The notes under the pieces: model-generated | Seen by the model: the letters and a program-made list of their open reading frames with translations, nothing else | The model's database searches: none | Told to the model about the DNA's origin: nothing | Position numbers and translations under genes: made by a program | Origin: Candidatus Omnitrophota bacterium | GTDB taxonomy: Bacteria; Omnitrophota; Gorgyraeia; Zapsychrales; Zapsychraceae | Assembly: GCA_020429915.1 (NCBI GenBank) | Contig: JAGQKV010000012.1 | Span: 65,737-129,736, forward strand | Direction of reading: 5' to 3' | DNA length: 64,000 nt | Part shown: positions 19,975 to 23,400 of the stretch, in pieces | How positions within the stretch are numbered: the first letter of the stretch is position 1 | Layout of the letters: each line of letters begins with the position of its first letter

Positions 19975-20475
19975 CTAGTCTAAAAATTTAATGCTTAAAT
20001 TCTGAGATTCCCTGAATTCTTGTTGATCACTGAATTCACGGAGAATTCTGCTGATCTTCTTTACTAAATTGCCTACTATAGACTTGTAACTCTTGCTAAA
20101 CAATAAACGACCTTGGCGTTGAAAACGCACCACATCAAGTTCACCACCGTCCCGCGATAATTGAATTTCTATATCCTTCAGAAACGGCTCCCGCATAGTA
20201 CTATATACCGTAGCATCATGAACTAGTACTTTGACTGAAATATCATAGTCTGCATGACTTATTCGGTAACCTTTTGCAGCCAACCCGCTGGCTATTTGCC
20301 GCGCCAACTCTTTCTGAAAGACTGAATAGTCGGGATTGATTCTCCGCACATAAGATGGATCTTGTAAGTCTTCCGCTGAGCATGTACCAGCGAGAATAAA
20401 GGTTATCATCCAGCAAACTGTACCACCTCTCGAAAAAAACCTTAGATACTTCAACACTCTTTTCATGAAGATCAT
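19975..20475 (-). CDS. Putative immunity lipoprotein for the RHS C-terminal toxin
   Basis: Immediately downstream of the RHS gene, with the start ATG overlapping the RHS stop (ATGA). Signal peptide plus LAGTC lipobox-like Cys. Markedly AT-richer than the surrounding genome, like the toxin tip. Confidence 0.6.
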   Translation of the reverse strand: MIFMKRVLKYLRFFSRGGTVCWMITFILAGTCSAEDLQDPSYVRRINPDYSVFQKELARQIASGLAAKGYRISHADYDISVKVLVHDATVYSTMREPFLKDIEIQLSRDGGELDVVRFQRQGRLLFSKSYKSIVGNLVKKISRILREFSDQQEFRESQNLSIKFLD

Positions 20476-23400
20476 CGGTTCATAAAATGCTCGCGCAATC
20501 GAGCGGGATCGGTAAATCCAAAATTGCTATACTGATTCCTAGGGATATGGTAACCAGCCGCACGCACAGCACCTAGCGCCCAGTCGGTACAATTTGCCGT
20601 TAAGGCGAAAGCACCAACAGGGGAATCAATATATGTTTGCACCATATTGGCCTGCGCCGCGTTTATCGGATAAACTTTTGAAATATCGGCATAGTCACCG
20701 AGTGCAGTGCCGGGCATTTCTTCTAATCTTAAGCCCGGGGATGAACGTCCAAGTACCCAACTGGCATGACTGTTCGACCTCTTCAAAGGCCATTTTCCAA
20801 AGTACTGCCGCCTACCATCCGGATATATCAGTCCAACGCCTGCATGCCCCTCACCCACCCGAAGTATGAGAGCATGATCTGGTCGCATACTTGAAGGGTT
20901 GGCTTGCATAATACGTCTAATTTCATCCGCTCTATTTTGGGCAACTTGTGCATGTGAATTAAATCCATCTCTTTTAACAAAGTTTTGTGCATGTTCGCTG
21001 CTTAAAAAACCTAAGACCGCGCCTGATCCAGCACCCGAAATAGCGCCTTGACCAATATCCTTGCCAACTATAGCGGATCCGGCAGCGCCTATTGCTCCAC
21101 CTTCAACGGCAAAAGCTCCAGATCGCAAAAACGGATTCACAACATCATGGAATCCAGCGGCGCCAAACACCGCAGATATTCCAAAACCAACCGCGGCTCC
21201 TGCCAAGGTTTTACCAAGCCCGGATCCGGAAAAAAAAGCCTCACCCAAACTTAGGGTAGAATTAATCAAACTGAATGCCTGAAAAGCGGCATAGGGATTA
21301 AAAACTGTGCCAATGAATGTAAATATTGCGGCAGCACCCGAGACCAGCGATTTCCAGAATTTCTTAAACCAACCATGCCCACTCGGATCTACATTGTTCA
21401 CCGGGTTATTTCCGGCGTAGGCGTAACGGTTAAAAGTTTGAGGATTTTCGGCGGACTGTACTATCGTATCCGGCGAAATAAACCTTCCCAACTCCGGATC
21501 ATAATAGCGGGCCTGCATGAAGATGAGGCTGCTTTCGGGGTCTTCATAGTGTTGGGTAAAGTAATAGCGACCCTGGTCGACAGGGTCGTCGTACACCACA
21601 TGACTGAAGGCCGTTGCCCCGAACGGTCGGTATTCACGGATTTCGCGGATGGCCCCGTCACGGTCGGTGGCCACATTCGTTCCACCAAGGTGATCCGTGT
21701 GGTAATAAAAAAATCCGTCGCCGCGCACGGTGGCGATGCGTTGGGACCCGAGGTAGATATGGCGGCTGTCGCCTCCCGGGCCCATTTCATAGAGCGAACC
21801 GACAAATTCCGTGATGATCCCGCCGACGGACTTGCTGGTCCGCCCGCCGTCGCCGTCGTACTCGTAAGTCGCCTTTACCATACCGTCTTTTCGAATCCGG
21901 CGCAACCGATTTTCCATGTCATATTCATACTCGGTCAGATCCTGAGCCTCGCCCAAAACGATAACTTGCTTGGCGGTCATATTGCCGTTATCGTCATACA
22001 CATAGACCGCGCGGGTTTGGCTGACCGGATCAAACGTGTCACACACGGCATGCGGTCCCCCGCCGCAATTGGCGTTGTAGGTATAGGTCTTGCCGTCCTT
22101 TTCCATAATATTACCGAGCACATCGTATTCGTAATTCCTGAAACCATAGCGTCCGGGATTATCGGCCGTCTTCAGCCGGTTGAGATGGTCATAGGTGAAC
22201 GTTTGGGTCGCGGTGTGAACGGCGTCAACAATGGTGAGGATATTTCCGGCAGCGTCATAGCCGTAACTCAGGTCTTGAATGTCGCCGGAGGCCCGGGCCC
22301 AACCGTTCCCGTCCTCCAGCGGCTCCGTTCCGGGGGCAAAGGTTTTCTTGTGCAGCAGCCGCTGGTTAAATGCATCAAAAAAATAGTAAGTACGGGTGCC
22401 GTTGCCCATCCGCAGATACGTCATCTGCCCGAAGACATTGTAGCGGATATCCTCCGCAAAGGTCTGCACGCTGCGTTCAATGGCGAACTCATCGAGAATC
22501 CCCAGCGAATAGCGAGCGATCTGCGACGCGTCGATGGATGTGACCAGCCCGTCGGCGCTGGTATCGGCGCGTTCACGTTGCTCCTCGGTCGACGAAACCA
22601 GCTGCAGCGCGATACGGACCGCCAGCGAGGCATCAATCGCGGTAATGCGCCCGTCGCCGCTCACGTCTCCGTATAACATGTTCGGATCTCCCTGACTGAC
22701 CCGCTCCACCTGCCCGGCGGCGTTATACGCATATTTAAGCTTGATCCCCCGCGGATACTTCAAGGCAATGAGGTTGCTCAAAGCATCGTACTCACGGCTG
22801 ACATCATAATTGATCATGCCCACCGTCTTTGTCGATACCATCTCCCGCCCCAGCTCATCGTAATGAAAACTCGTTCCGCCGTTGCCGTAGACCACATTGA
22901 CCAAGCGTCCGGCAGCATTATCCTGCCCCAGGATATCCTCGTCGTATTCATAGAGGACCGTGGAACCGCCGTCACTAAATGCCTTACGCGTCAACCGATT
23001 GAGCTCATCGTAGTAGAAGGTGATCACCCGGCCCATGGCGTCGGTCTGGGTCTTAAGGTTTCCGTTGGCATCATAGGTATACGCCCAACGGCCCATGTCC
23101 GGGTCTTCCAACCAACGTTTGCGGCCGAGCGTATCGTAACCGATCCGTGTGGTGACCGCTGCACCGTCGGCATCCGCGCGGGTGGTAATGAGATTATCCT
23201 GAGAATCATAATCGTACTCGGTGGCGGTATAGAGTTCATAAGGTTCGGCCGGGTAGTCCGGGGATCGACCGTCCGCGCCGCTGTAGACCTCCTTGCGGAT
23301 CAGCCGGCCGAAGGCGTCATAATAAGATCTTTGCATATGCCCGTTTTCGTCGTACGACGTGGCGGTCCAATCGTCATACTCGACGTTGGAGAAAGTAACC

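Follow-up and report, generated by a model that had tools for sequence, protein, structure and literature searches.

The window analyzed here is a stretch of 64,000 nucleotides from a Candidatus Omnitrophota bacterium (GenBank assembly GCA_020429915.1, contig JAGQKV010000012.1, positions 65,737 to 129,736 of the forward strand), and all coordinates below refer to positions within it. Its minus strand carries the gene of an RHS toxin of 2134 amino acids, whose C-terminal 300 residues follow a DPSGH hinge and form a tip with two parts. A Gly/Ala-rich segment with putative membrane helices directly abuts a domain that is predicted to be a permuted, papain-like thiol hydrolase of the NlpC/P60 superfamily, and the two parts occur together in every relative long enough to show both. 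The gene, the tip and the residues under discussion are the following.

20472..26876, minus strand: RHS toxin gene, 6405 nucleotides, 2134 amino acids (from the open reading frame (ORF) list and the translation)
21375..21389, minus strand: hinge D-P-S-G-H, residues 1830–1834, where the RHS core ends (…NNV-DPSGH; from the sequence)
20475..21374, minus strand: whole tip, residues 1835–2134 (300 residues)
21003..21374, minus strand: tip part 1, Gly/Ala-rich hydrophobic module, residues 1835–1958 (124 residues; from composition and hydropathy)
21003..21116, minus strand: putative glycine-zipper helical hairpin, better conserved than the rest of part 1, residues 1921–1958 (from invariant columns in alignment A5)
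20475..21002, minus strand: tip part 2, predicted permuted NlpC/P60 (papain-like) Cys-His hydrolase domain, residues 1959–2134 (176 residues)
20844..20846, minus strand: codon of His2011, predicted catalytic base, motif G-H-x-G
20718..20720, minus strand: codon of Glu2053, candidate third active-site residue at His+42
20652..20654, minus strand: codon of Gln2075, possibly part of the oxyanion hole
20589..20591, minus strand: codon of Cys2096, predicted nucleophile, motif T-x-N-C-x-D-W-A
19975..20475, minus strand: candidate immunity gene, 166 amino acids, with no family match in Pfam or NCBIfam

Family, conserved residues and predicted fold of the C-terminal domain

The domain family was defined by searching 1.84 billion representative proteins exhaustively with HMMER. 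At E ≤ 1e-3 there were 28 hits, among which the query itself accounts for one and about 22 are true relatives, many of them visibly RHS C-termini with a DP(S/T)GH hinge; in all, the family is a rare one of some 25–30 relatives. A word-index homologue search with the single 176-residue domain yielded nothing, the query included, and the same type of search with the domain profile yielded seven short fragments. Pattern scans located two loci among 185,579 species genomes, in a Planctomycetales and a Dehalococcoidia metagenome-assembled genome (MAG), and one locus among 241 million metagenome records, while a tblastn search of a plasmid collection gave no match. Uncultured lineages (Planctomycetales and Dehalococcoidia MAGs) were the only ones in which the tip architecture was found.

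No match to the domain was found in Pfam, NCBIfam or the PDB sequences, in line with the original prediction, which did not recognize the tip as a named RHS tip family, and the 300-residue tip matched no PDB chain at E ≤ 10, Tse5 included. By sequence, the domain family is a separate, undescribed clade that is invisible to current family models. The only match of the domain profile to PDB sequences, BtpiA (9jdi_C, E of 0.37, in the NC-helix region), was treated as a chance match, and a literature search on it gave nothing. Membership in DUF2459 was likewise rejected; its weak matches occur in two relatives only (E of 0.03–0.11, again at the NC-helix) and may hint at superfamily kinship.

Residue conservation was counted in a 30-sequence alignment in which the denominators are the sequences that cover each site. 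His2011 was found in 20/20 sequences and Cys2096 in 29/30, the sole exception being a 41-residue fragment. Asn2095 is kept in 28 of the 30 sequences, Gly2108 and Pro2124 in all 30, and Gln2075 is nearly invariant (27/28). Glu2053, the only conserved acidic residue in the domain, is acidic in 24/26. The peptides GEGHAGVGLIY (residues 2008–2018), LTANCTDWALG (2092–2102) and GYHIP (2108–2112), quoted in the original prediction, are all present, and the His2011 to Cys2096 spacing is 85 residues, as had been stated there. The conservation of the His and the Cys among homologues, which had been put forward as a check, thus bears the prediction out.

A single-sequence AlphaFold2 model was discarded for its low confidence score (pLDDT of 48), whereas the model computed from the 20-sequence alignment A1 reached a pLDDT of 89.9 and a pTM of 0.87. 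In this model helix 138–148 begins with Cys2096, and His2011 lies at the start of β-strand 54–59. The position of the Cys at a helix N-terminus and of the His on a strand, with the His coming first in the sequence, corresponds to a papain-like arrangement in permuted order. The papain-like α+β core of the model was recognizable by structure comparison with the PDB entries listed here, for each of which the match table gives one unlabelled value.

6v98: TseH, type VI secretion system (T6SS) effector of V. cholerae, 10.7 (20% identity over 115 residues)
2wp7: PPPDE2/DUF862, 8.5
2if6: YiiX, 7.7
7zot: PLAAT4, LRAT family, 7.5
7zv6: Aichivirus 2A, H-box/NC protein, 7.3
3kw0: YiiX-like protein, 6.5
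6r99: CLN5, 6.3
5xn7: MARTX RID, 5.2

TseH, which the original prediction did not mention, is therefore the closest solved structure to the predicted model. Foldseek searches against the PDB and BFVD gave weak but consistent matches, to Aichivirus 2A (E of 0.04), a viral LRAT protein and kobuvirus 2A. The permuted NlpC/P60 fold of the domain and its predicted catalytic dyad are well supported. The permuted papain-like fold of the PPPDE, LRAT and YiiX kind, as opposed to a canonical NlpC/P60 fold, had been anticipated from motifs, and the structural matches to 6v98, 2wp7, 2if6 and 7zot agree with it; the lack of a papain-like fold, named beforehand as a refuting outcome, was not what the structure prediction showed. 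The proposed kinship to PPPDE and LRAT stands at the level of the fold but not at the level of sequence, where Pfam gave no match to PPPDE, LRAT or YiiX.

The glycine-zipper segment and its fusion to the domain

The 124 residues of tip part 1 contain 19% Gly, 17% Ala, 10% Ser and 12% Phe, with 11 charged residues, and their hydropathy delineates four to five hydrophobic segments that represent putative membrane helices. There are 14 starts of the pattern (G/A/S)xxx(G/A/S)xxx(G/A/S). The description of the first ~130 residues of the tip as Gly/Ala-zipper rich was thus correct, as was the tip span of 20472–21375 except for its upper limit, which in frame is 21374 (Gly1835); base 21375 belongs to the codon of His1834, and a translation of the span as originally given runs out of frame.

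The sequence AVEGGAIGAAGSAIVGKDIGQGAISGAGSGAVLGFL is located at residues 1922–1957, within the hairpin of residues 1921–1958, which reads AFAVEGGAIGAAGSAIVG-KDIGQ-GAISGAGSGAVLGFL. The enzyme domain begins immediately after the hairpin, without a linker. The Pfam Gly-zipper_YMGG and OmpA models align with it at E of 0.005–0.007, and glycine-zipper matches in other members of the family reach E of 4e-4 (P0017), all of which are under the Pfam cut-offs.

The same segment lies directly ahead of the domain in 16/16 relatives for which enough N-terminal sequence is available. These proteins share the zipper motif …R-x-G-A-F-A-x-(E/Q)-G-A-x-I-G-A-A-G-x-A-I…G-F-(L/V)-(S/T)-S-(E/Q)-(Q/H)…, which is followed by the domain without a linker, and the mean column identity of alignment A5, which covers part 1, is 63%. 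A word-index search with the Gly-zipper profile retrieved one further member of the same family and nothing else. The Gly-zipper segment and the domain co-occur obligatorily and form one module. Because the whole two-part tip is conserved and its His and Cys are near-invariant, the association is more than a chance one.

A zipper of this type was also seen outside the family. The orphan RHS tip at 82-1017 of locus L007 (311 residues, with a DPSGH hinge) carries a different C-terminal domain, and its hairpin is related to the one described here (hhalign E of 4e-5). The occurrence of a related zipper ahead of a different domain suggests that the segment may be a membrane module that is reusable between toxin types. 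The Gly-zipper module is not significantly shared by the orphan tip of locus L004 (1660-2535).

The RHS protein, its downstream genes and its surroundings

The RHS protein begins with an apparent Sec-type signal peptide and matches the Pfam models SpvB (E of 1e-34), TcdB_toxin_midN (E of 1e-24) and RHS_repeat (E of 2.6e-37), together with FG-GAP repeats. The match to the RHS core is sub-threshold (E of 5.6e-4, 20.1 bits versus a cut-off of 27.9), and no PAAR domain was identified in the protein by Pfam. With its SpvB, TcdB_midN and FG-GAP elements the architecture resembles a TcB/TcC fusion. An identical protein is encoded on many metagenome contigs.

The DPSGH hinge has counterparts of the form DP(S/T)GH ahead of the module in 10 relatives and, by analogy with known RHS proteins, is where autoproteolysis would be expected to free the tip. 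The RHS repeats, the DPxG hinge, the variable tip, the adjacent small gene and a break in base composition are together those of a polymorphic toxin. The GC content is 0.45–0.49 across the tip and the 166-residue gene (19500-21500), as compared to 0.55–0.60, about 0.56, in the RHS body, a drop that fits a laterally exchanged toxin/immunity cassette. At some loci, relatives of the tip are found in orphan tip/immunity arrays. One relative, P0007 (3147 residues), is a homologous RHS protein that bears the same tip; inspection by eye showed an intein-like insertion (CFLAGTLV…VHN) close to its RHS core, and in its shell three inserted domains of ~130 residues each, arranged in tandem.

The start codon of the 166-residue gene overlaps the stop codon of the RHS gene (ATGA). 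The encoded protein begins with MKRVLKYLRFFSRGGTVCWMITFILAGTCSA…, a signal-peptide-like hydrophobic segment. The original prediction of a periplasmic lipoprotein as the immunity partner is therefore supported with respect to export but not with respect to lipidation, as no canonical lipobox can be recognized in …ILAGTCSA…, which has a Thr at position -1. A signal-peptide-like N-terminus is encoded by the gene that follows the tip in 6/6 loci (the window, L003, L004, L005, L006 and L007). These candidate immunity proteins belong to at least two unrelated families; the neighbours in L003, L004 and L005 are related to one another (E of 4e-11 and 1e-5), as are those in L006 and L007 (E of 2e-12). 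The consistent presence of signal-like segments on the immunity candidates argues for an action of the toxin outside the cytoplasm.

Other features of the RHS gene and its vicinity are these.

22508-22672, minus strand: Dockerin_1 insert in the RHS shell, residues 1402–1456 (Pfam E of 1.8e-9)
19345-19944, minus strand: TPR lipoprotein with the canonical lipobox LLLAGC, the next gene after the 166-residue gene
18818-19291, minus strand: small protein with a Cohesin domain and a signal-like N-terminus, three genes downstream of the RHS gene (E of 1.1e-5)

The TPR lipoprotein is 35% identical (E of 4e-36) to the product of L007 962-1621, which directly follows a different Gly-zipper RHS tip, and it is probably an orphan or second immunity gene. 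In L005, too, the immunity candidate is succeeded by TPR-like lipoprotein fragments. The Dockerin_1 insert and the nearby Cohesin protein raise the possibility that the RHS cocoon is tethered by a dockerin-cohesin pair, which would be an uncommon way of displaying an RHS toxin.

The locus is surrounded by purine-biosynthesis and other housekeeping genes, and no VgrG, PAAR, T6SS or TcA gene was found among the ~20 ORFs of the window that were scanned with Pfam. Elsewhere on the minus strand of the window are a fused PurS-PurL of 966 residues (11608-14508), a fused BioD-BioA of 721 residues (36551-38716; AAA_26 and Aminotran_3) and an ORF of 1730 residues with no Pfam match at E ≤ 1e-5 (44630-49822). 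The two biosynthetic fusions could be of use as taxonomic markers.

Proposed mechanism and comparison with known systems

We favor, at slightly better than even confidence, the reading that the tip is a membrane-tethered Cys-His acyl hydrolase or transferase, either a phospholipase or an acyltransferase, which would act on membrane lipids or lipoproteins from outside the target cytoplasmic membrane. The protein would be a Sec-exported, cocoon-type polymorphic RHS toxin whose C-terminal 300 residues are released at DPSGH. The Gly-zipper helices would then insert into the target cytoplasmic membrane from its outer (periplasmic) side, so that the linker-less enzyme domain is held against the bilayer surface, a geometry that we liken to that of the transmembrane-anchored Lnb and of the LRAT/PLAAT enzymes. 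There, Cys2096 as the nucleophile and His2011 as the base may cleave or transfer fatty-acyl groups of phospholipids or lipoproteins, with membrane damage as the outcome. The translationally coupled downstream protein would shield the producer, presumably by binding the enzyme domain outside the cytoplasm.

A lipid substrate is proposed because of the analogy with Tox-Act1, TseH and Lnb and because of the linker-less fusion to putative membrane helices. Tox-Act1, a Salmonella SPI-6 T6SS effector built around a permuted NlpC/P60 core, is a phospholipase on phosphatidylglycerol and phosphatidylethanolamine that is toxic only in the periplasm and requires its His and Cys (His43/Cys151); TseH acted as a phospholipase in a liposome assay with embedded substrate, and permuted NlpC/P60 clades are generally lipid-directed (PMC12994826). 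Lnb (DUF4105, Bacteroides) is a transmembrane-anchored, periplasmic, TseH-like lipoprotein N-acyltransferase (PMC11160734).

Several observations weigh against this proposal. The insertion of the Gly-rich segment into a membrane is predicted on the basis of hydropathy and the sub-threshold Pfam matches, and the substrate is assigned only by analogy. TseH itself was for a long time considered to be an endopeptidase of peptidoglycan (PMC12663445), and PPPDE, which ranked second among the fold matches, is an isopeptidase. The Pfam models DUF6695 (TseH; scanned at E ≤ 1–5), DUF4105, LRAT, Peptidase_C97 and Peptidase_C92 gave no match in the RHS protein and 20 relatives, and profile A1 failed to retrieve TseH (6v98) from the PDB sequences at E ≤ 10. 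The TseH triad consists of Glu81-His64-Cys172 (PMC11160734). In the tip domain an acidic residue of the TseH type is absent at His+17, which is occupied by Lys2028 (K in 18 and F in 6 across the relatives). Finally, BLASTP comparison of the 166-residue protein with the L003/L004/L005 family was not significant and hhalign gave an E of 0.02; with this value, a single immunity family common to the window and these three loci is not claimed.

The first alternative, which we regard as unlikely but the most serious of the competing explanations, is that the domain acts on peptidoglycan, as an amidase or endopeptidase, and that the Gly-zipper only aids delivery or periplasmic retention. TseH, which gave the best structural match, is commonly described as a peptidoglycan-targeting NlpC/P60 cysteine endopeptidase (PMC12663445, PMC11160734), and exported immunity candidates are equally compatible with a periplasmic cell-wall target. 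The liposome activity of TseH and the linker-less fusion, cited above for a lipid substrate, stand on the other side.

It is less probable still that the Gly-zipper segment itself kills, by pore formation or depolarization in the manner of Tse5-CT, EsxX and the ionophores of contact-dependent inhibition systems, with the hydrolase as an accessory for processing or targeting or as a second toxin. Membrane-depolarizing Gly-zipper tips of RHS and LXG proteins are known (PMC12744356), the GxxxG zippers of Tde1 permeabilize membranes (PMC10240207), and the related hairpin in L007 precedes a different C-terminal domain. However, the His, the Cys and the other motifs of the enzyme domain are as strictly conserved as the zipper, which argues for a selected catalytic function. 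Furthermore, the immunity candidates have a single signal segment and are of a soluble type rather than multi-pass membrane proteins, and Tse5 was not among matches to the tip in the PDB search described above.

A Tde1-like translocation device, by which the hydrolase would cross the inner membrane and act as a PPPDE-like isopeptidase or deamidase on a cytoplasmic protein, has a precedent in the N-terminal glycine zipper that drives translocation of the Tde1 effector (PMC10240207), in the second rank of PPPDE2 among the fold matches and in the frequent cytoplasmic action of RHS tips (PMC12994826), but it is very improbable in view of the signal-like segments on all six downstream immunity candidates, which point to neutralization outside the cytoplasm.

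Returning to the membrane-tethered acyl hydrolase or transferase, a more elaborate form of the proposal can be offered tentatively, at well below even confidence. The tip may be a self-anchoring enzymatic toxin, presented by a Sec-exported, T6SS-independent and perhaps dockerin-tethered cocoon, whose zipper hairpins, once the tip is released, would insert spontaneously into the membrane of a rival and thereby plant a TseH-like acyl hydrolase or acyltransferase on the bilayer, the substrate being possibly lipids or lipoproteins and not the cell wall.

Among known systems, TseH (VCA0285, 6v98, of the DUF6695 clade) is a free T6SS cargo devoid of membrane helices, whereas the domain described here is part of an RHS tip with an obligatory Gly-zipper, on a protein that has a signal peptide and an SpvB/TcdB-type N-terminus and no PAAR domain. 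Tox-Act1, compared here by its published description only (PMC12994826), belongs to the same superfamily, follows the same logic and serves as the functional model for the proposed mechanism. Unlike the present tip it has no fused membrane segment, and its immunity protein contains two transmembrane helices, whereas the neighbours of the tips have one N-terminal signal-like segment. Tse5-CT of P. aeruginosa RhsP1 is likewise a glycine-zipper-rich, membrane-targeting C-terminal tip of an RHS protein (PMC12744356), but it is a pore former without an enzyme domain and its immunity protein is membrane-bound.

Lnb and the LRAT/PLAAT proteins are housekeeping or metabolic enzymes and not toxins, and their anchors differ from the N-terminal, glycine-zipper type of anchor predicted here. 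The NC motif of LRAT is present in the tip domain in the form of the conserved Asn2095, but the LRAT H-box contains another His some 12 residues further on, and this one has no conserved counterpart after His2011. The PPPDE/DUF862 proteins (Peptidase C97, DeSI) are eukaryotic or viral isopeptidases. To our knowledge, neither PPPDE nor YiiX/YaeF (Peptidase C92) proteins have been described as RHS tips or with a Gly-zipper segment, and we know of no description of an 'anchor plus enzyme' design for permuted NlpC/P60 toxins.

Permuted NlpC/P60 domains have been recognized only recently as lipid-directed antibacterial toxins, through Tox-Act1 and the reassessment of TseH. If the proposed mechanism is true, the tip represents a new way to deliver permuted NlpC/P60 enzymes to their substrate. 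It would also offer a compact 300-residue module with which to study the way RHS tips arrive at target membranes and insert into them, as well as whether TseH-like enzymes target lipids or the cell wall. RHS tips are already known, and so are permuted NlpC/P60 toxins and glycine-zipper toxins. What is new is a clade that current family models do not detect, the obligatory fusion of its permuted NlpC/P60 domain to a putative membrane anchor, and the occurrence of this combination in Sec-exported RHS proteins of uncultured bacteria without a T6SS.

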